From an uncultured Alphaproteobacteria bacterium (lineage in GTDB: Bacteria > Pseudomonadota > Alphaproteobacteria > Rhizobiales > Beijerinckiaceae), in the NCBI GenBank assembly GCA_963717565.1, contig CAVQWJ010000005.1, positions 129,242-193,241 of the forward strand: a stretch of 64,000 bases of DNA, written 5' to 3'. Shown here in pieces: positions 2,420 to 58,627 of the stretch. Made by a program: the position numbers and the translations under genes. The notes beneath the pieces are model-generated. The model saw only the letters and a program-made list of their open reading frames with translations. It was not told the origin of the DNA and made no database searches. Each line of letters opens with the position of its first letter. The stretch's first letter is position 1.

Positions 2420-3694
2420 ATGTCGGAGATCCGCAAGGTGACGCAACTGCTCAAACGCTTCAGAGGCCTCGCGCACGACAGGCGGGGATCAATTGCAATC
2501 ATTTTCGGTCTGACGCTGATTCCGATGGCGACATTGGCCGGAGTGGCGGTCGACTACGCCAACGTCTCCCGGCTGAACGCCCGTCTGAAAGCCGCCGCCG
2601 ACGCGGCCGTGCTCTCCGCGGTTCGCGACTATGTATCCACGAGCAATCTGTCGATGGCGCAGAAAAAAGGCACGGACGTTTTCAACTCCGACCTCAAGAA
2701 AACCGCAGCTCTTCAGGACGCCACCATTAGTTTCAAGGATACGTCTTCGGGCGCGAACGTCAGTTTGACCGCCACTTACTCGGGCACAGTGAAAACCTGG
2801 TTTGGGGGCTTCATCCAAGTCGACAAGGTCCCTCTCAGCGGCTCGGCCAACGCGAGTTACGTGAAGCCGCGTTACAAGAACTTTTATTTCGTGGTCAACG
2901 CCTCGGAATCCATGGGCATCGCCGCGACTCAGGCTGACATCGACAAGCTGAAAACGCTGACGCCCGGCAGCTGCGCTCTCGCTTGCCATGTCCCGGAGAG
3001 TGGCGCCACAAAAAGCAACCAGCAGATTGCGCGTGAAAACAACGTTACGCTCAGACTCGACGTCATCAAGACGGCGATCAAAGACATTCTCACCCAGGTC
3101 GCCGCTGACCCGGTCAGCAGCGCCTACTTCAAGTTCGTCATCTATCCGTTTGCTTACTACCGCGGCGCGCTCGGCGCGCCCTCCTCGGATTTCTCAGGGC
3201 TGAAATCGCAGGTCGACGCCATCGATCTGTCCCACACGGTAAGTCCGGAAGGCTTCACCGATCACAAAAAGGCCCTCCAAAACCTGGCGGATACGATCGG
3301 CGCCGGTGGCGACGGCTCCACCGCCGCAAAAGCGCAAAACTTTATTTTCTTGATGACGGACGGCGTGGAAGACGTTGCAAATGCCGACAAGCGAGTCGAT
3401 ACGCCATATGCGTTCGATCCACTCAACGTCGGCTACATGGATTATACGGACTGCGACTATGTGAGAACGAAGACCCAAGGCACGGTCGGCGTGGTTTACA
3501 CGACCTATATTCCTCTTCCCGACTCCACCGCCTACAATGTCACCGTTGGTCAATTTGCGAGCAGTATCAAGCCGGCTCTGCAGAAATGCGCGGCCGCCAC
3601 TTATTACTACGAGGGGACCGACGGGGATCAGGTCGCGACAGCCATGAAGACCTTGTTCTCACAGGCCGCCTCCAGCGTGCGCCTGACCCAATAA
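2420..3694 (+). CDS. TadG/TadE-like pilin-type N-terminus with vWA-like domain
   Basis: RRGSIAIIFGLTLIPM...AVDY...LKAAADAAVL N-terminus; C-terminal FIFLMTDG. Confidence 0.75.
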   Translation: MSEIRKVTQLLKRFRGLAHDRRGSIAIIFGLTLIPMATLAGVAVDYANVSRLNARLKAAADAAVLSAVRDYVSTSNLSMAQKKGTDVFNSDLKKTAALQDATISFKDTSSGANVSLTATYSGTVKTWFGGFIQVDKVPLSGSANASYVKPRYKNFYFVVNASESMGIAATQADIDKLKTLTPGSCALACHVPESGATKSNQQIARENNVTLRLDVIKTAIKDILTQVAADPVSSAYFKFVIYPFAYYRGALGAPSSDFSGLKSQVDAIDLSHTVSPEGFTDHKKALQNLADTIGAGGDGSTAAKAQNFIFLMTDGVEDVANADKRVDTPYAFDPLNVGYMDYTDCDYVRTKTQGTVGVVYTTYIPLPDSTAYNVTVGQFASSIKPALQKCAAATYYYEGTDGDQVATAMKTLFSQAASSVRLTQ

Positions 3695-3866
3695 GGCGCA
3701 TGCGCCACGGGCGGCGCGCCCCGCCCGCGGCATGTCGAGACCGGCGGCTCCTCATGCTTCGGCGCTTCCGACGCCGCCCCGGCATGAGGAGCTTTCTTTT
3801 TCTCTGGAGTCTCGGGCCGCCGGGGAGCGCAGGACGCGCGCGTCGTCGGGGACGCGGCCGCCGGCC

Positions 3867-5435
<1,569 letters not shown>

Positions 5436-6032: not shown

Positions 6033-7841
6033 CTAACGCTCCGTGTCGAACTGCAATTTCGCCAGTCGCGCATAGAGGCCGCCCGCCGCGCTGAGGCTGG
6101 CGTGCGTGCCCTCCTCCACGACGCGGCCCTCGTCGAGGACGAGAATGCGGTCGGCTTCCAGCACCGTTGCGAGCCGGTGCGCGATGACGATGCTGGTGCG
6201 GTCCGCCATCACGTCGTGCAGCGCCGCCTGCACCGCCGCCTCGTTTTCGGCGTCTAGCGCGGAGGTGGCCTCGTCGAGCAGCAGGATGGGCGCGTCGGCG
6301 AGAATGGCGCGGGCAATGGCGAGGCGCTGGCGTTGCCCGCCGGAAAGCGTCACGCCCCTTTCGCCGAGCGGCGAGTCATAGCCCTTTGGCAGGGCGGAAA
6401 TGAAGTCATGCGCCTGCGCGCGCTTCGCCGCCGCGACGATCGCCTCGCGGGTCGCGCCGTCGCGGCCATAGGCGATGTTCTCGGCGACTGTCAGCCCGAA
6501 GATCACGGGGTCCTGCGGCGCGAGCGCCATGGCTGCGCGCAGATCGAGCGGATCGAGCGACCGCACGTCGATGCCGTCGAGCGTCACGGCGCCGCTGCTC
6601 ACGTCGTAGAATCGCAGCAGCAGCGAGAAGATCGTCGATTTGCCGGCGCCCGAAGGGCCGACGAGCGCAACGCGTTCGCCCGGCGCCACAGTGAGCGACA
6701 GGCCCTTGAGCGCGTCACGCTCGGGCGTCGTCGGATAGGCGAAATCGACGTTTTCGAAGGCGATGCGTCCCTGCCAGCGTGCGGGCGCGGGGGTCGGATG
6801 CGCCGGCGCGACGATGCGGGGCTTGATGTCGAGAATTTCAGCGATGCGCGCGGCGGCGCCGGCGGCGGCGCTCACTTCGCTCCACACGCTCGACAATTCG
6901 CCGAGAGAGCTTGCGCCGAGCACCGCATAAAGCACGAATTGCGAGAGAAGGCCGGAACTCATGCGGCCTGAGAGAACATCCTGCGCGCCGAGCCACAGCA
7001 CGCCCACGATGCTGGTGAAAACGACAGTGATGACGGCGGCGGTGACCAAAGCGCGCATCAGCGTCGCCGCCTGCGCAGCCTCAAAGGCGTTCTCGACCGC
7101 GCGGCGAAAGCGCGCCACCGTCGACGCCTGCGCGCCATTGGCCTGCATCACGCGCACGGCGGAAAGATTTTCACCTGCATAGGCGGAGGCCTCCGCCAGC
7201 GTGTCCTGCGCATGTTTCGAGCGGCGGCGCACCAGACGTCCCGAGGCGATCAGCGGCAGGACGATGACGGGAATCGCCGCGAGCGCCAGTCCCGCGAGCT
7301 TGGGACTCGTCGCCACCATCATCACAACCGCGCCGATGAACATGAAGATATTGCGCAGCGCGACGGAGGCCGAGGAGCCGAAGGCGGATTTGAGCAGCGT
7401 CGTGTCGGCTGTCAGACGCGACAGAAGTTCGCCGGTTTTAGCCGTATCGAAAAAGGCCGCATCGAGCGTCGTGAGATGCCTGAACAGATCGCCGCGCAGA
7501 TCGGCGACCACGCGTTCGCCGAGCGTCATGACGAAATAGTAGCGGGTGGCGGAGGCCACCGCGAGAGTCACGGCGACGGCGATCATGGCGCCGAAATAGG
7601 CGTTCACCGTCCCCGCGCTGTCGGTCGAGAAGCCGTGGTCGATCATGCCGCGCACGGCGGCCGGCAGGGTCAGCGTCGCGCCCGCCGCGACGATCAGCGC
7701 GGCGAGGGCGAGAACGATCGTGCGCTTGTAGCGCAGCGCATAGGGCAGCAGCGGACGCAAAGGCTCCAGCGTCGCCCCCAGTCGCCGTCTCGGTTCGGGT
7801 GCGGCGGCCGCGCCTGCCGCGGCTTCGATCGTGTTGGTCAT
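6033..7841 (-). CDS. ABC exporter, fused permease/ATPase (MsbA-like)
   Basis: Transmembrane domain plus GPSGAGKS Walker A, LSGGQRQR signature and LLLDEATSALD. Confidence 0.92.
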   Translation of the reverse strand: MTNTIEAAAGAAAAPEPRRRLGATLEPLRPLLPYALRYKRTIVLALAALIVAAGATLTLPAAVRGMIDHGFSTDSAGTVNAYFGAMIAVAVTLAVASATRYYFVMTLGERVVADLRGDLFRHLTTLDAAFFDTAKTGELLSRLTADTTLLKSAFGSSASVALRNIFMFIGAVVMMVATSPKLAGLALAAIPVIVLPLIASGRLVRRRSKHAQDTLAEASAYAGENLSAVRVMQANGAQASTVARFRRAVENAFEAAQAATLMRALVTAAVITVVFTSIVGVLWLGAQDVLSGRMSSGLLSQFVLYAVLGASSLGELSSVWSEVSAAAGAAARIAEILDIKPRIVAPAHPTPAPARWQGRIAFENVDFAYPTTPERDALKGLSLTVAPGERVALVGPSGAGKSTIFSLLLRFYDVSSGAVTLDGIDVRSLDPLDLRAAMALAPQDPVIFGLTVAENIAYGRDGATREAIVAAAKRAQAHDFISALPKGYDSPLGERGVTLSGGQRQRLAIARAILADAPILLLDEATSALDAENEAAVQAALHDVMADRTSIVIAHRLATVLEADRILVLDEGRVVEEGTHASLSAAGGLYARLAKLQFDTER

Positions 7842-45513: not shown

Positions 45514-46716
45514 ATGGAGAAATGGCTCTCCATCATCGGCATTGGCGAAGATGGCTTCGAGGGCCTCGCGCCCGCCGCGCGCGCGCTGATCGCGCAGGCG
45601 ACGCTGATCGTCGGCGGCGCGCGGCATTTGTCGCTCATCGGCGAAACAGGAGCCGAGCGGCTGCAATGGCCCTCGCCAATCACCGACGCCCTGCCCCGCA
45701 TTCTCGCGCAGCGCGGAAAGCCGACTGTCGTCGCGGCGTCGGGCGATCCATTCTTCTACGGCGTCGGCGATCTGCTGACGCGCCATGTCCCGCGTGAAGA
45801 AATTTTTTCGCTTCCCGCGCCTTCCGCTTTCTCACTTGCGGCGTCTCGTCTCGGGTGGAGTCAGCAGGACTGCGCTCTGCTTTCCCTGCATGGCCGCGCT
45901 TTCGAGCGGTTGACGCCACGCCTGCAACCCCGCGCGCGCATCATCGCACTTTCATGGGACGAGACCACGCCCGCGCGCATCGCCGAACATCTTGCCGCGC
46001 GCGGCATGGGGGGCTCGCGGATGTTCGTGCTCGAACATCTCGGCGGGCCGCAGGAACGCCTGCGCGAGACGCGCGCCGACGCCTTCGCTTTGCATGACGT
46101 CGCGGCGCTGAACACTGTCGCCATCGAGCTGGACGCCGCGCCGGGGGCGCGCGTCATTCCGCTCGCGCCGGGTCTCCCGGACGAATGGTTCGAGAACGAC
46201 GGCCAGATCACCAAACGCGATATTCGCGCAGTGACGCTCTCCGCGCTCGCGCCGCGCAAGGGAGAGCTTCTTTGGGACGTCGGCGCCGGTTCCGGCTCCA
46301 TCTCGATCGAATGGATGCTCAGCGACCCCGCCAATCGCGCAATCGCGATCGAACGGGACACAGCGCGTGCAGCGCGTATCGCGCGCAATGCTCTCTCACT
46401 CGGCGTTCCCGACCTCGAGATCGTCACGGGCGCCGCGCCGCAGGCGCTCGCAAGCCTGGCGCCGCCAGACGCGATCTTCATCGGCGGCGGCGCCAATATG
46501 CACACACTCGACGCGGCCTGGCGAGCGCTGTCGAGCAATGGGAGAATTGTCATCAACGGCGTCACACTGGAGACACAGGGGCTGCTTGCGCAAGCCTTCT
46601 CGGAGAAAGGGGGCGAGCTTGTTCATCTGCAGGTTTCGCACGCGCGGCCTGTCGGCCGCTTTCATGCGCTCGATCCGGGCATGGCCGTGCTGCAATGGCG
46701 CGGGGTGAAGCCATGA
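45514..46716 (+). CDS. cobL: Precorrin-6Y C5,15-methyltransferase (decarboxylating)
   Basis: SGDPFFYG, GQITK, LWDVGAGSGS, FIGGG. Confidence 0.92.
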   Translation: MEKWLSIIGIGEDGFEGLAPAARALIAQATLIVGGARHLSLIGETGAERLQWPSPITDALPRILAQRGKPTVVAASGDPFFYGVGDLLTRHVPREEIFSLPAPSAFSLAASRLGWSQQDCALLSLHGRAFERLTPRLQPRARIIALSWDETTPARIAEHLAARGMGGSRMFVLEHLGGPQERLRETRADAFALHDVAALNTVAIELDAAPGARVIPLAPGLPDEWFENDGQITKRDIRAVTLSALAPRKGELLWDVGAGSGSISIEWMLSDPANRAIAIERDTARAARIARNALSLGVPDLEIVTGAAPQALASLAPPDAIFIGGGANMHTLDAAWRALSSNGRIVINGVTLETQGLLAQAFSEKGGELVHLQVSHARPVGRFHALDPGMAVLQWRGVKP

Positions 46717-47105
46717 CCCGCTACGCCGCCGGCATCGGCGCACGCAGGGGCGTCGCCGCCGACGTCATCGTCGACCTCGTGCGCGGCATCACGCAGAAGC
46801 ATGCGATCGATCTTTCGCGCGTGACGCTGTGCACGCTCGAAAGCAAGGCCGACGAGCCGGGCGTGCATGAGGCGGCGGCGGCGCTTGGCGTCGCTCTCGT
46901 CTTTCTGCCGCTCGACGCGCTCAAAGCCCGCAAGGGCGCCGCGCCAACCCACTCGCCGCGCGTGCAGGCGATGTTTGGCGTCGGCAGCGTCGCGGAAGCC
47001 GCCGCGCTGGTCGGCGCGGGGCCGGGAAGTCGCTTGCTGGCGCCGCGCGTGGCGACGCCTTACGCCGCCTGCGCGCTGGCCATCAGCGCCGAGGATGAAG
47101 AATGA
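46713..47105 (+). CDS. cobE: Cobalamin biosynthesis protein CobE (CbiG C-terminal domain)
   Basis: [13 protein letters not shown]...KADEPG...[11 protein letters not shown]; ATG overlaps the cobL stop. Confidence 0.8.
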
Positions 47106-47866
47106 CCGTGCATTTCATCGGCGCCGGCCCCGGCGCCGCCGATCTTCTGACGCTCCGCGGGCGCGATCTCATCGCATCATCGCCTGTCTGTCTTTATGCG
47201 GGATCGCTCGTGCCCGCTGGCGTCCTGGCGCATTGTCCAATCGGCGCCCGCATCGTCGACACGGCGCCACTGTCGCTCGACGACATCATCGCGGAAATGA
47301 AGACCGCGCATGACGCGGGGCTCGACGTCGCGCGCCTGCATTCCGGCGATCTCTCCATCTGGAGCGCCGTCGGCGAACAAACGCGTCGACTGCGTGCGCT
47401 GGACATTCCCTATACGATGACGCCCGGCGTGCCGGCCTTTGCGGCCGCCGCCGCCGCGCTGAAACGCGAATTGACGCTGCCGGAAGTCGCGCAGTCTCTC
47501 GTCCTCACGCGCACGTCGGGCCGCGCCTCGGCCATGCCGGAGCGCGAGACGCTTGCGACTTTCGCGCAATCCGGCGCGACGCTCGCAATTCATCTGTCAA
47601 TTCACGTTCTCTCGCGGATCGTCGAGGAGCTCACTCCTTTCTATGGCGCCGACTGCCCCGTGGCTCTCGTCTATCGGGCGTCCTGGCCCGACAAGTCGAT
47701 CGTTCGCGGGACCCTTGCCGACATCGAGGCGCGCGCGGCCGATACGCCGATGGAGCGCACAGCGCTGATACTGGTCGGGCCAGCGCTCGCGGCGGAGGAC
47801 TTCCGCGAGAGCGCGCTTTACGACGCGGGCTATGATCGCCGTTTTCGTCCGCGAGGCGAGCTGTGA
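47102..47866 (+). CDS. cobM: Precorrin-4 C11-methyltransferase
   Basis: [25 protein letters not shown]. Confidence 0.94.
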
Positions 47867-49165
47867 TCGCACCGGGCCTGCTGATCGGGGCCGCGCGCTC
47901 GGGCTCCGGCAAGACTACGCTGGCGCTCGGACTGATGCGCGCGCTGGCGCGGCGCGGATTTCGAGTCGGCGCCGTGAAATGCGGGCCAGACTATATCGAT
48001 CCGGCGTTTCACGCGGCCGCCACCGGGCGCGACAGCCTCAATCTGGACTCCTGGGCCATGGAGTCTGGAATGATCGTCTCCCTGGCCGAGCAGGCGAGCA
48101 AGCGGCGCCGACATCATCATCGCCGAGGGCGCCATGGGTCTTTTTGACGGCGCCCCGGGCGGCGCGGCCGGAACCGGCGCCAGCGCGGATGTGGCGCGGC
48201 TTCTCGGCTGGCCGATCTTGCTCGCGCATGACGTTTCGGGTCAGGCGCAGACCGCAGCCGCGGTCATTCGCGGTCTTGCCAGCCATGACTCTCGCCTGAA
48301 AATCGCCGGCGTCGTCGCCAATCGCGTCGGCAGCGACCGACATCGGCGGCTGGTTTCGGAGGGCGTTTCGGAACTGGGTCTGCGTTTATTCGGGGCCCTG
48401 CCCCGCGATGACAGCCTGCAGCTCCCGGAGCGTCATCTGGGTCTGGTGCAGGCGGGAGAGACCGAAGGGCTCGACGCCCGGCTCGACGCCCTGGCGGCCT
48501 TCGTTGAAGCCCATGTGGACGTTCTGGCGATCGCACAGGCAGTCGAAGCGTCGGCTCCAAACGCCGCGTCGGCGCGCGCCCTGCCGCCGCCGGCGAAACG
48601 GATCGCCGTCGCCCGCGACGAGGCGTTTTCCTTCTTCTATCCGCATCTGGCGCAAAGTTGGGAGGCTGCGGGCGCTGCGCTCGTCTTCTTCTCGCCTCTG
48701 GCGGACGAGCCGCCCCCCGATGACTGCGATCTTTGCTGGCTGCCCGGCGGCTACCCGGAATTACATGCCGCGCGCTTGGCCCGCTCGCGGGCGTTCCTGG
48801 ACGGTCTGCGGAATTTCGCGAAGACGCGTCCCGTCCATGGCGAGTGCGGAGGCTACATGGCGCTCGGCAAATTCATTGTCGACGCAAATGGCGACGCCCA
48901 TGAAATGGCCGGGCTGCTGGACCTCGAAACCAGCTTCGCGAAACGAAAGCTGCATCTGGGATATCGGATTGGACGTCTGGCCGATCGCCACTGCCTCGGC
49001 GGCCCGGGGCAGCGGCTTCGCGGTCACGAATTCCATTACGCGACAGTCACGCGAGAATCAGGCGAACCCTTCGTCTTTGCCAGGGACGCCTATAGCGACA
49101 CCGAGACGCCAGCCGGGCTTCGTCGCGGCCTCGTCTCGGGGTCTTTCTTCCACGTAATAGGCTGA
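47863..49165 (+). CDS. cobB: Cobyrinate a,c-diamide synthase, apparent indel near 48100
   Basis: SGSGKTT and KCGPDYIDP in the first frame; [25 protein letters not shown] in the second. Confidence 0.9.
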
Positions 49166-49168
49166 CGC

Positions 49169-49260
49169 AAGAAAAGGGGCCGCCGGAAGACCAGCGGCCC
49201 AAGTCAAGGGAGGAAACGCCCAAGGAGGGCTACGGAGCGAGACAGGATCCCGCTACGTCT
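49169..49260 (-). ncRNA. mmgR: SuhB/MmgR (alpha-r8) family small RNA
   Basis: Minus strand ...CCCUCCUUGGGCGUUUCCUCCCUUGACUUGGGCCGC...GCGGCCCCUUUU: anti-SD core plus terminator as recalled for the SuhB family. Confidence 0.8.
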
Positions 49261-49264
49261 TTTT

Positions 49265-49293
49265 TTTATAATGCTGCATCGCACAAGTGTCAA
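49265..49293 (-). promoter_or_regulatory. Near-consensus sigma70 promoter of the sRNA
   Basis: TTGACA (49293-49288), 17-nt spacer, TATAAA (49270-49265); TTGTGCG in the spacer. Confidence 0.8.
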
Positions 49294-49395
49294 GGATTTT
49301 TGCTGCAGTGCAATTTACGGCCTTTTGGCAAAGCTCTCAGACGGTGAAGCAAAGGCGCCGAAGCCAAGCCCCGGGGCCGGCGGCCGGACCTGAAC

Positions 49396-50404
49396 TCATT
49401 TTGCCTGCAGAACATTGTTGACGAATGTTCCAGATTTCTTTTCCCCGTTCGGGAACACGATTGTCCCCTCCCCGTTCGCAACGCCATTGGTGAAATCGCC
49501 GCGATATGACACCCCGTCCGGGAAGGTGAAAACGCCCCTCCCATTCGGCACGCCGTCGCGAAATTCTCCTACATATTTTTTTCCGTCCGCAAATGTATAA
49601 ACTCCCTTCCCGATAATTCTGCCGTCCACGAACTCGCCGCTGTAGGACTCCTGATTAGCGATCGTGAAAGTGCCTTTGCCATGCTTTTTGCCGTTGCGAA
49701 ATTGCCCGACATATTTGCTGCCGTCCGCAAATTCCATCGTTCCCCTTCCGTTGGCTTCTCCCTTGTCCCACTGGCCCTCGTATCTGTCTCCCGAGGTCAA
49801 TGTTGCAGCGCCATAGCAATGGGACCAGGCGACATCGAGACTTTGCGGGCACTGTTGAAGACCGCCGATGGTTGGGCCTTCCGCCTTCGCAGTTTTTGTC
49901 TTGGACTGTGCAGATTTCTCCGTCTTTGAAGACGCCGGATAATTTTTTCCCATCCGGCAGTGTGATTGTCCCTTTTCCATTCGGCAGATCGTCGGCGAAC
50001 TGGCCCGTATAGACTTTACCGTCTGCCGTTGTCAGCGTCCCCTGCCCGCTGCGTTTGAAGTTTTTGAACCCCCCGGAATAGGTCTCGCCATCCGGATTGG
50101 TTACGACACCTTTGCCATTCGCCTCGCCGTCGCGAAATTCGCCAACGTATTTCTTCCCGTCCGAGAATAGGAGCGTGCCCTTGCCGTTAGGCCTGCCGTT
50201 ACGGAACTCCCCCGAGTAGGTGTCACCCGCTGGCGTCTTGATTTCAGCGAAACAGGGCTTCTTGTTATTCTCCACGTCGTCCGCCGTGCAATCTGGCGCC
50301 TTTCCTTTTCCTGCCGCTTGCGCGGGCCAGGCGGAAATCGCGACGAGCGCGCTTATACCCATCGTAAGCAGCAGCAGGGGTTTCTTATTTGAACGCGTTC
50401 TCAT
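49396..50404 (-). CDS. Secreted MORN-repeat protein, apparent indel near 49915
   Basis: Signal peptide, then YxGEFxxGxxxGKG repeats in two blocks in two frames. Confidence 0.85.
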
Positions 50405-50712
50405 CTTGGACGGCCTCACGATCACAATCTAAGTTCTAAACAGACCAGCTGACACGAATGCGTCGTGTCCGAGAAGCGACGCTTTTGAGGCGCCTCTTTG
50501 CCTTCAATGAAGCCGTCAGCATTCCTTCAACCCTTGCTCACTAGCCTTGGCGATCGGCCAAGACGGGAAACAGCGCACCGCATGCGTCTGACGAAAAGTG
50601 TGGCTAGCTTATCACCAAATCTCCGAATCTCCGGAATTCAGTATTGCGCCTTCCGGGGCCGGCGAGCATAGTAAAACGGCAATTCGGCGAGCCTGAGTTG
50701 GTGGAGGGTTAT

Positions 50713-50973
50713 ATGCGTTCGTTCAGCAGGGTGCTTTGTTTCGCGGGTTCTTTGTTTCTTGCGCTTTGCGCCGGCGCGGCTCCAGCAACAGCCCAACAAG
50801 ACACGGGAGCCGGAATGGGCATAGTCGTTCTTGAAGACATTATTGCCAAACAACGCAACCCGGAATGCGCGGCTCCGAAAACGCATTATGATCCTTGGAC
50901 CGGCGCAATCAGCTATACGTGCGAGAGCTTAGCCATTCCCGGCAAGGCGCGCCGTTTGTCCAAGCATAATTGA
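50713..50973 (+). CDS. Small secreted hypothetical protein with two Cys in the mature part
   Basis: GGAGGG RBS; signal peptide ending APATA; ECAAPKTHYDPWTGAISYTCE. Confidence 0.6.
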   Translation: MRSFSRVLCFAGSLFLALCAGAAPATAQQDTGAGMGIVVLEDIIAKQRNPECAAPKTHYDPWTGAISYTCESLAIPGKARRLSKHN

Positions 50974-51281
50974 AGTGCATCTGTTCCTGTCCAGATTAAC
51001 CTGCCGGAAAACTGTGCAATCGGGTCGTTTAAAGCATACGAGCGCGCCCTCATCCGGACCGCTTCTGAGATTCAGATCACAGCAGCTTGCACAGCAGCGG
51101 CTTTGAATTCTAGATGTGTTTCCAATCTGCTGATATCGAGAACTCCTGCTCTCGGCAAGATGACGCACAATTCGAACCGAGAGTTCCGTCGCGCCGATGC
51201 CGCGAGCCCGCTGCCGGCGCGTTTTCGTCCCCCTTTGAGAGCGACCGCGCCAAGCCAGAAGCAAGCGAACTCAGACTTCCG

Positions 51282-51308
51282 CGCCAGCGCACTTTTTATG
51301 CGCTGGCG
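51282..51308 (-). terminator. 10-bp hairpin ending the 51-55 kb cluster
   Basis: CGCCAGCGCA / TGCGCTGGCG, 13 nt after the stop at 51322. Confidence 0.55.
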
Positions 51309-51321
51309 GTGTGACACCTGA

Positions 51322-51707
51322 TCAATTAAGGGGCTGGATGATATTTGCCGTGGTGCCGTTTTTTATGGTCGGGTTGTTTGAATTCGTTGTGTTCATAGAC
51401 GCATTCGAGCTATCGACGATGCTGCCCACGGTGAAGGCTTGCTTATCCATCTGGACACCGCCGCCGTTCTGGAAGCCCACTCCTTTCATTTCATTCAAAC
51501 TGCCGTCAACGCTTCCGTTCTGAACGACGCCGACGATATTGTTAACGCCGATTTGCGTTACGGAGGAGTAGTTAGTGCCATAGGCGGAAGCCTGGTTCTG
51601 GTTCTGGTTTTGATTCTGTGGTTCTGATTTTGGTTGTTCTGATCTCCCGCAAAGGCGGAGCCAGAAGCAATGATGATCAGCAAGGCGGCGGCAGGTAACG
51701 TTTTCAT
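51322..51707 (-). CDS. Secreted QN-rich curlin-like protein, apparent indel near 51620
   Basis: AGGAG RBS. MKTLPAAALLIIIASGSAFA signal, then GDQNNQNQN; after the frame change QNQNQNQNQASAYGTNYSSVTQIGVNNIVGVVQNG...IIQPLN*. Confidence 0.7.
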
Positions 51708-51782
51708 GACAAGCTCCTGTGTTGTTCCGTGACTGAAGTTGTCGAACTTCTGTACCAGATCCACCTGATTCACAACTATAGG

Positions 51783-53388
51783 CTAGAACGCTTTCCTCAT
51801 ATATCCGAAGGCGGTCGGAAAGTCCGCGCGCACCGGAGGCGCGCTGCCGTTAGCGTAATACTGGCCACTGGCAAGCGTCCATGTATATCCGCCGTCGACG
51901 CCAAGAGCCCATCCGTCACCCATCCAATATTCGGCGTTGCCGCGCACCTGGGCGCCGCTCACCTTCGACTGGAACCCGAGAGGAAGCATTCCGAACACCC
52001 AATCCTAGGTCCTCTGGAGAAGAGCCCATATACGTCTTGAAGCCGGTAGCGGTCACTGCAGTCTTGAATACCGGCGTCCACAGATGCTCGTAGGAGCCAA
52101 GGATCGACCAACCGGACCCGCGGGACAAATTTCCGTAGGAGCCGCTGACATAGTCCAGCGCCATGTAGGGAACGCCGAGATAGGAGATCGCTCCCTGCGT
52201 CGCGCTCGCCGAAAGCATCGCCTTGCCATACATGTTGCCGCCGAGATCGCCGAGGAAATTGCTCCATTTCCAACGATATTCGCCGGCCAGCTGGGCGGCC
52301 CAGCCCCAGGTGGAGGTTTTCTGCGCAACCGGCCCCGTGAAAGTGAACGCCGCAATATCGCGGATCTGATGCATCGCGCCCGACATATGCAGCAGGAAGG
52401 ACGGCGTGCCGATGCGGGCCTGACCGACGAAGTCGGGATACTGGACGTAATTGTAGCGCGCCAAAACGCCGTCGGCATAGCGTCGCATATGCGGATCTTC
52501 CGCCGACACGCTCAGAGAGGCGCCGAGATTGTTGACCAGGCTCGGCAGAAGGCTGTCGATGCGCTTCGTATAGGAAACCGCAGGCGTGCTGACGTAGGAT
52601 TGGTAACCGGGGAAATAGGTGTAGCCCGTGCGGCTGAAGCTGAAAAGCGTGGGCTGTATGCCAACGCGCAGACCTTCGAACTGGACCCATGCCTGATCAG
52701 TGGCGCCGCGCCAGTAGTTTCCTTGGATCTGGTTCACAGTAATGCGGTTCTCGCCGAAATAGTTTGTTTCGGTTCTCGCGTAAATTCTGGCGTTCACATA
52801 GGCAGAAATGGTTCCGTAATCCGTGTTGCGGAAGGTCAGCAAATTGACCATGCTGTCCGTGCCGACGTAAGGGTGGTCCGTCTGAGCCGCCACATACGGA
52901 TTATTGTAGTAGTAAAGCATCGGCGCGGCGGCGACGAGAGCGGTTTTTCCTTGTGCGTCCAGGCGCATCGCAGGAAAACGTTGCGTCGTGAAAGCGACGT
53001 CGCTCTTCGCGCCGTCATATCCCAAAAAGCCGGTGAACTGACCATGGATGGCGGTACAGAAGCCCGTGTCGCCGATGGTGAAGAAATTGGTGTTGCCGTT
53101 CAGGTTACACGCCGACGCCAGCAAGGGCGGAGCCGGCGCGCGCGTGTAAGACTGCGCGACACTACGGACCTCCGCCTTTTTGGCGACCGGCTTCTTCTTC
53201 TGCTTCGACGCGGATCTCAGCTCTCTGAGCGCGCGCTCTGCTTCGGCGACCGAGGCGTCTGCGTCATTATTGAACGAGGCTGGCTGGGCGATCGCTCCAC
53301 CCGTTCCTGCGCTAATGGCGGCGAAAACGCCGGCCATTACGCATGCTGATTTCGGCGCCAGCCTCATAGCATTATACCTTTTCCCCAT
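51783..53388 (-). CDS. Alphaproteobacterial Omp2-type porin with N-terminal extension, apparent indel near 51995
   Basis: CNLNGNTNFFTIGDTGFC resembles the Omp2/RopA N-terminal two-Cys motif; alternating aromatic strands; second frame ends YMRKAF with terminal Phe. Alternative start at 53367. Confidence 0.7.
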
Positions 53389-53410
53389 CCGAATGGATAT
53401 TCAAAGCACA

Positions 53411-53983
53411 TTAGTGTTGACGACCAAAACCGCTCGTAACCGTCATGCCTCCAGAAGTATAGGTAACGAGATTCATGCCTCCTGTCTCGAACAGACTCAG
53501 GTAATTGCCTTCCGCGTCACGCCAGCTCTGAAAGACGGGACCTTTGGAAAAAGCCGTGTTGTCGCCGCCCACTCCGATCGAAGAAGAGGGCGAGGAAGGG
53601 GCGCCCCGACCGACGTGCGAATGCTGGACAACGCCTGCGGTGTTCGATTTGCCGACCTGGGTGAGGTCGGAACTGTTGTAAGACGCGTCCTGAGTGATAT
53701 AGGCGTTGTTGGCGCCGTTCGTGTTCACCTGCTGAACATTGGAAAAAGCCTTTATCCCGGATTGGTTCACAACGATGCTGTTTCGATCGTTGGCCGCCTG
53801 AACGCCGAAGAAGGAGTTCAGGACGCCATTCTGATTCACGCCCATCGAGGAATTATCGTTGCCGCCGACTACCGTCACGAGATAGTTGAAGAAGGAGTTC
53901 TGATTGAACGTCTGCGCGGACGCCGATCCAACAAAAGCAGCGATTAAGAATCGACTGGAGAAAGATCTGCCGGCGCATGACAA
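53411..53983 (-). CDS. Curlin-repeat (CsgB-like) secreted protein
   Basis: About six N-x5-Q-x-G-x2-N-like repeats (NSSMGVNQNGVLN, NSIVVNQSG, NNAYITQ, NSSDLTQVGKSN, NTAGVVQ). TTG start at 53983, or ATG 53978 with a 1-bp indel. Confidence 0.65.
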   Translation of the reverse strand: MSCAGRSFSSRFLIAAFVGSASAQTFNQNSFFNYLVTVVGGNDNSSMGVNQNGVLNSFFGVQAANDRNSIVVNQSGIKAFSNVQQVNTNGANNAYITQDASYNSSDLTQVGKSNTAGVVQHSHVGRGAPSSPSSSIGVGGDNTAFSKGPVFQSWRDAEGNYLSLFETGGMNLVTYTSGGMTVTSGFGRQH

Positions 53984-54083
53984 CCCCTAGGCTTGGAGAC
54001 TTTACCCTCGACATGAGAGCCGCTGCTTGAGTATCGGGCAAAAGCTCTTAATCCATCATAAAAGCCAAATGCTTGGTTTCTCA

Positions 54084-54353
54084 CTAACGTTGCCGGATGT
54101 AGTCGTAACAATGAAAATTGTACGGCGTGTTCGTTCCATCGGGAACGGGCTGAAGAACCCAGATATCATCCCTCAGGTAATCCTGGGCCTGCGTCTGTGC
54201 GAGATACCCGCCAAGACAGGCCGGGTCTTCCTGAGACGCAGCAGGCGCAGCCTGCGGCGCAATGCGTCTTGTTTTGCGAGCGAACGCTGGCGACGCAATG
54301 AAAAATCCAGCCGCAAACGCTGCGAGAACCAATACTGAAAACACACGCCTCAT
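54084..54353 (-). CDS. 89-aa secreted hypothetical protein with two Cys
   Basis: ATG 54353 after GGGGA; MRRVFSVLVLAAFAAGFFIASPAFA signal; PACLGG...NFHCYDY. Confidence 0.65.
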   Translation of the reverse strand: MRRVFSVLVLAAFAAGFFIASPAFARKTRRIAPQAAPAASQEDPACLGGYLAQTQAQDYLRDDIWVLQPVPDGTNTPYNFHCYDYIRQR

Positions 54354-54441
54354 TACTGGTCCCCGAAAGATGACGTTGAGCGTCCTGACCGACGGCGCGG
54401 AAGGGGTAAGGGCGGCGGCGACCGCCGCCCCTGAGAGATAT

Positions 54442-55473
54442 TTAGAACGGGAGGCCGAGGCCGCCGCCAGCACCACCGGGGGAGCCACCGGTGCCGCCAG
54501 CGCCGCCATTGCCGCCCGTAAGGGTAAGGTCAGCGGTGCCGATAGTGTTACCGTCCGAGCCCTTAATCGGATTGAGAGACCCGAGGACGAGAGCGTCCTT
54601 GATGCCCAGACCACCGGCGACGCCACCGTTGGTTGCGCCATTCGCGATCGAGGTCGTGGAGTTTTCGATCTTCCAGTTACCCGAATGTTCGGTATTCATT
54701 GAGACTGAGGCGCCGTTGCCGCCGTTGCCGCCATAGCCGCCGTTGCCGCCATAGCCGCCAGCGCCACCCGTGTTCGCAGAGTCAGTCTTGAGCTCGGGCT
54801 CATAGCTGACCTTGGCATCAACACTGGCCTTGAAATCGGCGCTCAGGCTGCCACCGCTGCCACCGCTGCCACCGCCGCCCCACTTGCCACCCTTGCCGCC
54901 CGTGCTGCTGGCGCTTGCAACGCCCAAGTCCGTAGGAACGCCGCCGAGTCCGGAGCTGGCAGACTGATCCTCGAGCTTGATGTCGTCAACCTTGGCAATC
55001 TGCTTAATGCGGACCTTCGCTTCGCCGCCGTTGCCGCCGTAGCCGCCATCGCCGCCCTTGCCGCCCTTACCGCCATTGCCAAAGTCAATGATATTGCCGA
55101 TCTGGAACGCCTTGCTCTCAATGTTCAAAGCCGCCCCGCCGTGATCGCCGCCACCCACGAGCGACGCCCCTTGCGGCCCGTCCGATCCTACTAGGGGAAT
55201 GCCTAAATGGTAATCGGTCACATTGCCCTGGAAGGTTTGAAGCTTGCCAAGGTCGTTAACGCTCTTGATATCGCCATCAGCGGTGACGCCCTGAACAAGG
55301 CCATTGATGTTATTGACGCCGATCTGGGTGTTTGAGCCGTAGTTGACGCCCTGAGCCGCCGACGACACGTTCACACCGCCGCCGAATGATGGGCGCGCCT
55401 GCTGAGCGTTCGCGACCGTGGCCGAAACGAGGCCAGCGGCCCCGATGATTGCGCAAAGAGAGACTTTTTTCAT
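54442..55473 (-). CDS. Secreted Gly-rich low-complexity protein
   Basis: Signal peptide ending ANA; four GGxGGx blocks separated by beta-prone spacers; N-terminal TQIGVNNI motif. Confidence 0.85.
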   Translation of the reverse strand: MKKVSLCAIIGAAGLVSATVANAQQARPSFGGGVNVSSAAQGVNYGSNTQIGVNNINGLVQGVTADGDIKSVNDLGKLQTFQGNVTDYHLGIPLVGSDGPQGASLVGGGDHGGAALNIESKAFQIGNIIDFGNGGKGGKGGDGGYGGNGGEAKVRIKQIAKVDDIKLEDQSASSGLGGVPTDLGVASASSTGGKGGKWGGGGSGGSGGSLSADFKASVDAKVSYEPELKTDSANTGGAGGYGGNGGYGGNGGNGASVSMNTEHSGNWKIENSTTSIANGATNGGVAGGLGIKDALVLGSLNPIKGSDGNTIGTADLTLTGGNGGAGGTGGSPGGAGGGLGLPF

Positions 55474-56049
55474 GGTCTAATCCTGTCGGTGTTGCAGTCT
55501 AGAGTAAACAGCAGAGACCGTTTTACTCAGGTCTCGAACGCGAGATTACATTCGGCTGGAAGAGAGTCCATGAGGATAACAACGCATCAATGCGTTTAGG
55601 CGCCGAGTGTGATTTTCCTGACACACCCAGGAAACTTGGCCATAAATATCTATTTCCCATTCTTCTAATAAGCGACCTTAATTTTTCTGACTCTGTCTTG
55701 GCTGGTGTGCTCCACTCAAATATCTGATAACAAATTGAATATTGAAGGCTCGTTGCGCTCGCGAAAGGAATAAGAAATACTCAGTTCAAGTATGTGTCTC
55801 CGCTTGTGGGATGAAATTGACGGGAAGCGCACAAACCGTCTAAAGTGAAGCTTCCAAGCAAATTTGGTGCGAGCAACTGCGTTTCTTCGGCAAAATCAAG
55901 CCAGCAAGAAGCCTTCTCGTGTTGCTTCTGGGGCCAGGGCTGCTCAACGCTCTGTGCTTCGGCTTGACTGAGAGGGGTAATTTTTCTCTTTTCAGTTTCG
56001 GAAGTCTCTAAATCTATGGCGAGCAACCCGAATCGGAGGTTGCCCCATT

Positions 56050-56239: not shown

Positions 56240-56496
56240 TTCCGTAGCTCCGGTTGCGGTTCAAATTACCGCAGCCGGTTGTCTAGCTAACCGTGCCGCA
56301 CCCCAATCACAACGCGATATGGTCGGTTGCGAGCATAAATCGTTCCCTCTGTCGAGTGCCGGACGTAAACTCCCCAAATGTGCCGATTGAAAATTCCCCA
56401 GTTTTCGTGACGCCCGGCCTTCCAGGGCATGCCCTGGAAGGCCGGGCGGCGCGCCGACTCACCGATGCTGCTCCCGTTGGCGGGAGGGAGGGCGCG

Positions 56497-57764
56497 GTGA
56501 TCAAACTCGGGGAAATTGTCATGATCCTGGAATTGCATCGTCAGGGTGTCTCTGTGTCCGCGATCGCGCGCCAGCTCGGAATCGACCGGAAGACGGTCCG
56601 CAAGCACATCGCCTCGGGGCTGGCGGCGCCCAGCTACAAGGCACGGCCGCCGCGCGAACGCGCGATTACAACTTTCGAGCCCTATCTGCGGGAGCGCCTC
56701 GGCGGCCTATCCGGCTCTGACCGGCCGCCGGCTATGGCGAGAGATCAAGGACCGCGGATATGCCGGCGGCTACACTGCGGTCACCGACTTCCTGCGCGAA
56801 CTTCGGCCGCCGCGCCCGAAAGGCTTCGAGGTGCGCTTCGAGACGCCGCCCGGCGAACAGGCGCAGGTCGACTTCGCCCGCTTCGATGTCGAGTTCCTCG
56901 ACGAGCCCGGCGCCAAGCGGATCGTCTGGCTCTTTTCCATGGTCCTGGGCCATTCCCGCTTCATCTGGGCGCGCTTCGTCCTGCACCAGGATATGCAGAG
57001 CGTCCTGCGCTGCCATATGGCCGCCTTCGAGGCGCTCGGCGGCGTCCCGCGCGAGATCCTCTACGATCGCATGAAGACCGCCGTCATCGGCGAAGACCCG
57101 GACGGCCTCGTCGTCTACAATCGCGCGCTGCTCGATCTGGCGCGCCATTACGGCTTTCAGCCGCGCGCCTGCAAGCCCTACCGCGCCAAAACGAAGGGCA
57201 AGGTCGAGCGGCCCTTCCGCTACATCCGGGAAGATTTTTTCCTCGGCGGCGCCTTCCGCAATCTCGATGACCTGAACGCCCAGCTCCGGACCTGGCTCGA
57301 TACGGTCGCCAATCCGAGGGTCCACGCCACGACCAGGCGCGTCGTCAATGAGGCCTTCGCCGAAGAGAAGGCGTCGCTCCAGCCGTTGCCGTCCACGCCC
57401 TATCAGGCGGTGCTTCGGCTCGAGCGGCGCGCCTCGCATGAAGGCATGGTCAGCGTCGGCGGCAATCTCTACAGCGTCCCGGACACCACCCGGCGGCGCG
57501 TCCTCGACGTCCATGTCTTCGCCGACGCCATCCGCATCTTCGAGGACGGCGCATTGATCGCCGCCCATGCGCCGCTCGAAGGCCGCGGCGAAAAACGCCT
57601 CGATCCGGCGCATCGCAAAATGCCGTCGCAAGCGCAGCGTCGCCGGCCGCCCGACGCATCGCCGCCCCTCGTGCTGCGCGCCGGCGATCACGCCGCGAGA
57701 CGCCCGCTGGCCTTCTACGACGCCGTGGGCCGTCGCCTGGCCATGCAGGGAGGGCTCGCGATGA
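56497..57764 (+). CDS. istA: IS21 transposase IstA, apparent indels near 56701 and 57750
   Basis: N-terminal HTH; RFETPPGEQAQVDF, YDRMKTAV, KTKGKVER. Confidence 0.88.
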
Positions 57765-58627
57765 ATGCGACGCCCTCCGCCATCATCGACCGCGTCAAAC
57801 GCAATCTCGTCGGCCTGAGGATGCCGCGCGCCCTCGAAATCCTCGACGTCACCCTGCGCGGCATCGAGCGCGGCGAGACCACCGCGCTCGACGCGCTCGA
57901 CATTCTGCTCACCGAGGAGCTGACGCTGCGCGAGAACCGCCGCGTCAGGATGGCGCTTCAGATGGCGCGCCTGTCCGCCGTCAAGACGCTCGCCGGCTTC
58001 GACTTCGCCTTCCAGCCCTCGCTCGACAAGAGCCGCGTCATGGCGCTGGCCGAATTGCAGTTCATCGATCGCGCCGAAGCCGTCCATCTCATCGGACCGC
58101 CCGGCACGGGGAAAACCCATCTCAGCCTGGCGCTCGGCGTCGAAGCGGTCAAAGCCGGCCGCAGCGTCTACTTCGCCTCCCTCGCCGACATCATCGCGAC
58201 GCTCGCCAGGGCCGAACGCGAAGGGACGCTTCGGGAGAAGATCCGCTACTTCTGCCGCTTCTCGCTGCTGATCGTCGACGAGATCGGCTATCTGCCCGTC
58301 ACGCCCGGCGGCGGCAATCTGTTCTTCCAGCTCGTCAACGCCCGCTACGAAAAAGGCGCCATGATCCTCACCTCGAACCGCGGCTTCGCCGAATGGGGCG
58401 AGATCTTCGGCGATCCCGTCGTCGCCACCGCGCTGCTCGACCGCCTCCTGCACCACGCCGTCGTCTTCCAGATCGAAGGCTCAAGCTATCGGCTCCGCGA
58501 GCACGCCGATCTGCTGCCCGAACATGTTCGCATGAAAGCGAGCATCCAGCCCGCGCCAATCCCGCCGACGCTCCGGCGCCGCGGACGGCCGCCAAAAAAC
58601 GGAGGCGCCGATCAAGACATCGGCTGA
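57761..58627 (+). CDS. istB: IS21 helper ATPase IstB
   Basis: FDFAFQP, GPPGTGKTHL, IVDEIGY, LTSNRGF, LDRLLHH. Confidence 0.93.
   Translation: MNATPSAIIDRVKRNLVGLRMPRALEILDVTLRGIERGETTALDALDILLTEELTLRENRRVRMALQMARLSAVKTLAGFDFAFQPSLDKSRVMALAELQFIDRAEAVHLIGPPGTGKTHLSLALGVEAVKAGRSVYFASLADIIATLARAEREGTLREKIRYFCRFSLLIVDEIGYLPVTPGGGNLFFQLVNARYEKGAMILTSNRGFAEWGEIFGDPVVATALLDRLLHHAVVFQIEGSSYRLREHADLLPEHVRMKASIQPAPIPPTLRRRGRPPKNGGADQDIG

Follow-up and report, generated by a model that had tools for sequence, protein, structure and literature searches.

Curli biogenesis is understood almost wholly from the CsgG/E/F pathway, and the Fap system of Pseudomonas comprises the repeat subunits FapB/FapC together with FapF, an outer-membrane channel with an N-terminal extension. 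The curlin kernel itself is described as two N-$-psi1-$-psi2-$-Q motifs with an X-G-X-X turn, centred on Q-x10-Q (Sleutel et al., 2023, PMC10192328). Many Alphaproteobacteria possess curlin genes without other csg genes, and alternative biogenesis routes have been inferred for these organisms (Dueholm et al., 2012, PMC3521004). Methylocystis is absent from the tables of the latter survey, and the word "porin" occurs nowhere in its text, so that a porin partner is not described there. Our own search for literature on curli or curlin in Methylocystis or methanotrophs, likewise by accession, retrieved nothing relevant.

The locus considered here lies in a stretch of 64,000 nucleotides, referred to as the window, and consists of five genes in the order A-E-B-C-D, all on the minus strand and running from position 55473 down to 51322. 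Gene A (54442..55473) encodes a Gly-rich protein of 343 aa, and gene E (54084..54350, minus strand) an 88-aa secreted protein with two Cys (ACLGGYLAQTQAQDYLRDDIWVLQPVP...) that is orthologous to an 89-aa gene of Methylocystis sp. SC2 and found no match in Pfam, NCBIfam or PDB searches. They are followed by gene B (53411..53983, minus strand), a curlin-like protein of several repeats whose conserved C-terminal domain ends in FGRQH, by gene C (51783..53388, minus strand), a Porin_2-like outer-membrane protein with a charged N-terminal extension (PF02530; 24.1 bits at a cut-off of 22), and by the small gene D. The cluster adjoins a gene for a secreted MORN-repeat protein (49396..50425, minus strand), as it does in all relatives. 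An IS21-like element is located directly upstream of the cluster (56293-58627, plus strand); its 325-aa ORF (56293-57270) overlaps a 693-aa ORF in another frame (56546-58627), and its two genes look fused or frameshifted. Scans of the cluster for consensus promoters and terminators gave results at or below shuffle expectation.

Gene D (51322..51707, minus strand) encodes a small, predicted secreted protein with one curlin kernel and is split across two frames in the window. The gene call is based on ORFs and a three-frame translation, on intact orthologues of 115-126 aa and on RNA contigs that are 97-98.5% identical. The start codon is an ATG at 51707 with AGGAG, a good Shine-Dalgarno sequence, 6 nt upstream, and the N-terminus reads MKTLPAAALLIIIASGSAFA/GDQNNQNQN, in which the first part (51648..51707, minus strand) can be read as a typical Sec signal peptide that would be cleaved at an A-x-A site and lacks a lipobox. 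The orthologues show the same signal-peptide layout, ending in ALA/DG. Behind the cleavage site follows a (CAGAAC/CAGAAT)n tract coding for (QN)n (51592..51635, minus strand), which Tandem Repeats Finder describes as a hexanucleotide array of period 6 with 7 copies and 10% indels, and which holds the frame break at about 51611-51620. Past this tract the first frame continues as RIKTRTRTR... and then stops; the second frame, entered at 51618, reads QNQNQNQNQASAYGTNYSSVTQIGVNNIVGVVQ...KQAFTVGSIVD...IIQPLN up to the stop at 51322 (in full: QNQNQNQNQASAYGTNYSSVTQIGVNNIVGVVQNGSVDGSLNEMKGVGFQNGGGVQMDKQAFTVGSIVDSSNASMNTTNSNNPTIKNGTTANIIQPLN). A mature protein of about 100 residues would result, nearly without charge and with a high content of N, Q, S, T and G. 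RNA folding predicts a GC-rich hairpin directly 3' of the stop codon (51283..51309, minus strand; -28.3 kcal/mol, z = -3.17) that has no U-tract; since RNA contigs extend past it to at least position 51250, termination at this hairpin is without support.

For the break in gene D, two different causes can be imagined, namely that (i) it is an assembly error, which we consider highly probable, or (ii) the frameshift is real and gene D is, in this strain, a pseudogene or switched off by a mutation of the repeat tract, which we consider unlikely. The sequence-only reading had joined the two frames into one protein, and this repair is borne out by the intact frame of the relatives: in Illumina-type assemblies, every D orthologue has the signal peptide, a low-complexity stretch and the mature part in a single frame. 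Two soil Illumina metatranscriptome contigs, X3 (445 nt, 11 mismatches) and X8 (422 nt, 12 mismatches), cover the whole of gene D at about 97% identity, and as both lack 8 nt at 51611, they read ...GDQNNQNQNQNQNQNQASAYG... in frame; contigs from three further runs of soil and sediment are 98-98.5% identical to the D coding region. The version of the tract that is present in the window was found in none of the Illumina-derived contigs. The genome of the window itself was not found in public runs, the best share of words being 0.10.

Gene D is also not the only broken gene in this region, as cobB, the MORN gene and the porin gene C, all within about 4 kb, are frameshifted as well, which makes an assembly error the likeliest cause of the D break. 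The cobB gene (47863-49165, plus strand), encoding a cobyrinate a,c-diamide synthase, is split into ORFs of 94 and 343 aa; at about 48098-48102 the window has one base more than a close relative, the Logan contig L019 from DRR627331, whose 433-aa gene is intact (GCAAGCGGCGCC vs GCAAGGGCGCC). The MORN gene is distributed over two overlapping ORFs that both match Pfam MORN, and tblastn places it in two frames of the window, with intact homologues of 334 aa in SC2 and 405 aa in L019. Gene C is frameshifted near 51994-51998, where DNA contigs of relatives lack 1 nt at 51994 or 51997; its true C-terminus, ...GYMRKAF, lies in the ORF 51783-51998, and tblastn again finds two frames.

A real lesion would be in line with the observation that the difference from the 97% identical relative amounts to 8 nt, which is unlike a simple homopolymer error, and with the mutation-prone nature of repeat tracts. 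In addition, the closest relative of D, contig L005, is likewise one base short in its QN tract. However, slippage of a hexamer would preserve the frame, L019 is intact in both cobB and the MORN gene, and L005 is full of frameshifts in its own A gene, which is spread over three frames, so that both the window record and L005 look like error-prone assemblies. Programmed -1 ribosomal frameshifting was considered, as one and the same shift would repair the window and L005, but it was rejected: the sequence offers no slippery heptamer, the frame is intact in the relatives, and the L005 record is frameshifted at many other places. Slippage of the repeats as a means of phase variation was rejected as well, since a 6-nt unit keeps the frame. 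The idea of long-read errors at CcrM sites (GANTC) is not supported: a GAATC is present in the tract at 51612, and none occurs in the scanned interval 48100-48170 at the cobB break. The interval 51322-51707 is to be annotated as one gene, frameshifted probably by an assembly error, and not as two small ORFs.

The sequence-only reading had ascribed a prion-like (QN)n tract to the repaired protein, but this tract is not a defining feature. Across the D orthologues the pure QN tract varies between about 4 and 12 residues, and it is absent from the orthologues P0019 (GGSNGSGSNANG) and L019 (GDGGNKAQAGG). The share of Q and N in the mature chain is about 30% in most orthologues and 17-32% across the family, and D lacks the long conserved domain expected of a prion-like Q/N-rich protein. 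Judged by this variation, the (QN)n tract is best read as a variable spacer or linker behind the signal-peptide cleavage site and not as a conserved prion-like domain.

D shares several segments with the long protein A. In BLASTP, the 98-aa mature D aligns with the 343-aa A over a segment with 19 of 39 residues identical (E 2e-7) and over a second, collinear segment (SMNTTNSNNPTIKNGTTA vs SMNTEHSGNWKIENSTTS) with 10/18 identities (E 0.007); comparison of the D-family and A-family profiles, signal peptides included, gives a probability of 98.4% and an E-value of 4.6e-15 over 93 columns. The joint alignment resolves into three collinear blocks, namely GxNYxxxTQIGVNNxxxxVQ (I), DKQAFxIGSIxDS (II) and SxNxxIxN (III). 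In D, block I occupies 51520..51573 on the minus strand and its counterpart in A, NYGSNTQIGVNNINGLVQ, lies at 55291-55344. Block II of D (DKQAFTVGSIVDS, 51409..51447, minus strand) corresponds to SKAFQIGNIIDF in A and has the invariant columns D78, Q80, A81, F82, G85, S86 and S90 in the D family, and block III of D (SMNTTNSNNPTIKNGTTA, 51346..51399, minus strand) corresponds to residues 258-275 of A. Relative to D, protein A adds GNGG-rich inserts between blocks II and III as well as a C-terminal extension.

These alignments show that D and A are true paralogues, which define a small family. The two D/A alignments quoted in the sequence-only reading are present in the order given there (16/23 and 5/11 residues identical), and the paralogy it had proposed is confirmed by both BLASTP and the profiles. 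Its restriction to the N-terminal domain of A, however, does not hold: since the three blocks span A, D is a minimal version of the whole of A and not of its N-terminal domain alone. Gene D thereby shares the features of the Methylocystis D/A family, i.e. a signal peptide, blocks I, II and III in this order and a place in an A-E-B-C-D cluster, and searches with the family profile returned E-values of 1e-29 to 1e-53 for the closest members.

Block I is the segment that links the family to curlins. It agrees exactly with the kernel pattern that we scored, N-x-psi-x-psi-x-Q-x-G-x-x-N-x-psi-x-psi-x-Q, reading N-Y-S-S-V-T-Q / I-G-V-N / N-I-V-G-V-V-Q in D (NYSSVTQIGVNNIVGVVQ), an assignment that was examined by regular expression, shuffle test and hhalign. 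The kernel is complete, with two strands joined by the x-G-x-x turn and with Asn and Gln in the ladder positions. All 15 D-type proteins that were checked carry it in exact form, as do the A proteins of the window type; in A proteins of the SC2 type, an Asn replaces the first Gln. Within the D family the fixed kernel positions Q43, G45, N48 and Q54 are invariant and the psi position A50 is nearly so. In composition-preserving shuffles the kernel arose in 78 of 20000 cases for D (0.39%) and in 8 of 20000 for A (0.04%), and the six-frame translation of the whole 64-kb window contains three matches only, which are A, B (53624-53677) and D; in B this kernel forms the last repeat. Hence the segment common to D and A is, by this pattern, one canonical curlin amyloid kernel.

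The neighbour B is a true curlin-repeat protein by its family profile, which matches PDB entry 8c50, a "Curlin associated repeat-containing protein", at an E-value of 6.1e-21. Its scores against the NCBIfam models for CsgB (E 5e-5) and CsgA (E 6e-4) are both below the cut-off, as is its score against Pfam Curlin_rpt (18.4 bits, cut-off 20.7). B carries four Q-x10-Q units and D a single one. By hhalign, a D-only profile recognises this repeat protein in its last repeat with a probability of 70-80% and E-values of 1e-5 to 4e-5, the match of block I being given 80% and E 1.4e-5, and in BLASTP the D protein of SC2 aligns with B of the window from this last repeat into the start of the B C-terminal domain (29/91 identical, E 9e-5). 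The M. hirsuta orthologue of D is listed in UniRef under the name "Curlin". The merged D+A alignment, when compared with B by hhalign, matched in the signal peptides only.

An alternative to a curlin function would place D and A at the cell surface, in the outer membrane or in the periplasm without any amyloid role; the kernel would then have arisen by low-complexity convergence or persist as an old relic of a partial duplication of B. The curated models are in agreement with such a reading, as none of the Pfam and NCBIfam models matches D or A, including CsgA/CsgB of NCBIfam, and Curlin_rpt has no match in any of 29 D/A members at E <= 10. It could further be supported by the presence of one kernel only, by the biased composition, with about 30% Q+N in most D-type proteins and 17-32% across the family, and by the AlphaFold2 predictions, which give no fold. 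For D (29-row alignment) the model has a pLDDT of 48.5 without secondary structure or a confident fold, and for the A protein of SC2 (26 rows) a pLDDT of 42.5, likewise without secondary structure; such low values are compatible with folding only upon assembly and equally with a shallow alignment, and support neither. However, convergence or a relic is difficult to reconcile with kernel positions that are exactly the invariant columns of the family, with shuffle rates of 0.04-0.4%, with the confinement of the kernel to the cluster within 64 kb and with the strict linkage to the true curlin B across genomes. We hence regard a non-amyloid role of D and A as unlikely.

With the shared segment being a canonical curlin kernel, a role in polymerisation or templating is reasonable, as is an analogy to the major and minor subunits CsgA/CsgB. 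The segment had earlier been proposed to be either a targeting or a polymerisation motif that defines a subunit family resembling such major/minor pairs. Polymerisation and the subunit analogy are what we retain, whereas a function in targeting or export received no support from anything tested.

The profile search for homologues that had been suggested along with this proposal was carried out and found intact D orthologues, in Methylocystis genomes and metagenomes only. A word-indexed search yielded 13 relatives of D from Methylocystis sp. SC2, other Methylocystis and metagenomes, the complete ones being 117-126 aa long and in a single frame; the SC2 proteins D, A and B have the accessions CCJ06678, CCJ06674 and CCJ06676. 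Among 1.84 billion representative proteins, the profile recovered 10 clusters at E <= 0.001, nine of them D-type or of the longer A-type and the weakest an unrelated 1560-aa repeat protein, and in GTDB, with one genome per species, 13 of 13 D loci came from Methylocystis. The gene order A-E-B-C-D, followed by the MORN gene and an SLT_2 transglycosylase gene, is kept in every locus with enough flanking sequence, with typical sizes in the relatives of about 89 aa for E, about 190 aa for B and about 500 aa for C, and D and A occur together in those Methylocystis genome loci whose contig spans both genes. In Methylocystis sp. H62 (NZ_JADNQZ010000056.1, 3441-4245), the 5' half of A (residues 2-131) and its 3' half (residues 117-271) match on opposite strands, which could be due to an inverted segment or a misassembly.

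Where they can be aligned, the cluster proteins of the window share only about 38-61% of their residues with the SC2 proteins. In L019, the same cob-gene neighbours are present and the cob proteins are 84-96% identical to those of the window, whereas the proteins B, C and D, compared over 46695-55473 of the window, are just 51-64% identical, so that the cluster diverges much faster than its surroundings. In addition, the whole block from A to the MORN gene is inverted relative to cobB in L019. As such, the locus shared by L019 and the window is fast-evolving or exchanged.

The pairing of a porin with a curlin extends beyond Methylocystis. Three metagenome contigs (L020, L022 and L023) encode distant Porin_2-like relatives of C, 29-33% identical, which are convergent to a gene for a 175-aa curlin-repeat protein with a B-like C-terminal domain ending in ...MGRAH. 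Two GerE-type regulators are encoded nearby, and L022 also contains the start of a CsgA-like gene (7310-7507). At none of these three loci was a D- or A-like gene seen. With a distant porin and curlin occurring without D and A, B and C seem to form the core of the system, to which A, D and E were apparently added in the Methylocystis lineage.

Gene D is transcribed in nature, in soils and sediments, as D RNA is present in the two best soil metatranscriptomes and in three further runs, from two studies in all. In the two best soil metatranscriptomes, contig depth, which is a poor measure of expression, is highest for D (6-11) and for the 5' part of A, where it reaches about 20, with gene C covered patchily and B and E at nil; these depths fit D and A as abundant products and B as a low-level one. 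The raw-read metatranscriptome X28 contributed no reads. Several RNA contigs from two runs end at 55519-55521, where they pass into Illumina adapter sequence, so that an RNA 5' end may lie some 46 nt ahead of the ATG of A.

One could speculate that D is a periplasmic or cell-surface regulator of B, which by mimicry of the kernel would cap the growing end or keep B soluble in the manner of CsgC/CsgH or CsgE. A lone kernel can dock on the end of a solenoid and offers little surface for further growth, and D is small, secreted and always encoded beside B and C. Moreover, alphaproteobacterial curli loci are known to use accessory proteins of their own such as CsgH (Dueholm et al., 2012, PMC3521004). 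However, none of the solved chaperone structures resembles D in sequence, and a folded domain is not predicted for it: a search of the D-family profile against all PDB sequences gave three chance-level matches to molybdenum-pterin-binding proteins (E 0.13-0.35) and no likeness to CsgC/CsgH, which are folded beta-sandwiches, nor did D, A or E yield a usable match when searched against PDB sequences. D had no match to CsgF (Pfam PF10614) at E <= 1 or E <= 10. The RNA depth of D, moreover, exceeds that of B and C, which would be unusual, albeit not impossible, for a substoichiometric inhibitor. A regulator of this kind therefore appears improbable to us, and quite distinctly so.

The remaining components of the classical export pathway were likewise searched for. 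No CsgG, CsgE or CsgF domain was detected by Pfam in seven proteins (A, B, C, D, the two MORN ORFs and the 109-aa ORF 50644-50973), by NCBIfam in A, B, C, E or a D orthologue, or in the precomputed Pfam matches for genes called in the related loci.

Our preferred reading, for which we see the arguments on either side in rough balance, is that the multi-repeat curlin B would template the single-kernel subunits D and A, or assemble together with them, on the cell surface, and that the porin-family protein C would replace CsgG as their export route or anchor. In such a scheme D and A would be exported by Sec and would then cross or dock at the outer membrane via the dedicated Porin_2-like C. The single kernel of each would be templated onto the beta-solenoid of B, which may act as nucleator or anchor, and a surface fibre or matrix resembling curli would arise without CsgG. 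The segment common to D and A would accordingly serve polymerisation (templating) and not export, with the (QN)n tract as a variable spacer. The exactness of the kernel in D-type proteins, its confinement to the cluster, the match of D to the last repeat of B and the curlin nature of B were counted for templating. Against it stand the silence of Curlin_rpt, Pfam and NCBIfam on D and A together with the failure of the merged D+A profile to match B, the single canonical kernel of D, compared with the at least four that known curlins stack, and the AlphaFold2 models, which leave a beta-solenoid or hairpin structure of D and A unsupported.

A more far-reaching version, which we put forward tentatively and consider possible but rather doubtful, is that A and D represent a new class of amyloid subunits with a single kernel that form no solenoid alone and polymerise only when templated on a B protein anchored at a Porin_2-type protein. 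Such a route would be independent of both CsgG and FapF, and its B-C core would have spread beyond Methylocystis, with A and D as a lineage-specific elaboration.

Irrespective of the role of D itself, the cluster provides a concrete and compact candidate for an alternative curlin route, consisting of the curlin B, the porin C and the single-kernel proteins A and D. As Methylocystis species, such as SC2, M. rosea and M. hirsuta, are cultivable methanotrophs, the idea is directly testable, and the cluster may be relevant to how methane oxidisers aggregate and attach to surfaces.

Compared with known systems, the Fap system of Pseudomonas resembles the present locus by analogy only, in that it combines secreted subunits of unequal length with a dedicated, N-terminally extended beta-barrel protein of the outer membrane; the sequences revealed no relation, C is a member of Porin_2 and not of FapF, and the repeats are of the curlin and not of the Fap type. 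With the alphaproteobacterial curlin and csgH loci (PMC3521004), the cluster shares curlin genes without the full csg machinery as well as small, lineage-specific accessory genes, but a CsgH- or CsgC-like protein was not detected here by the PDB profile search. From CsgA/CsgB (PF07012), D and A differ by having one canonical repeat instead of 4-60, no HMM match, no predicted beta-solenoid and, in D, no tandem repetition, by blocks II and III and the Gly-rich inserts of A, which are not curlin-like, and by a locus that lacks csgG, csgE and csgF and in which a Porin_2-like outer-membrane protein takes their place. Like CsgA/CsgB, however, D and A carry the exact kernel with its Q-x10-Q spacing, are N/Q/S/G-rich proteins predicted to be secreted by Sec and are encoded beside the multi-repeat curlin B, and as a short and a long paralogue they recall the pairs of major and minor subunits.
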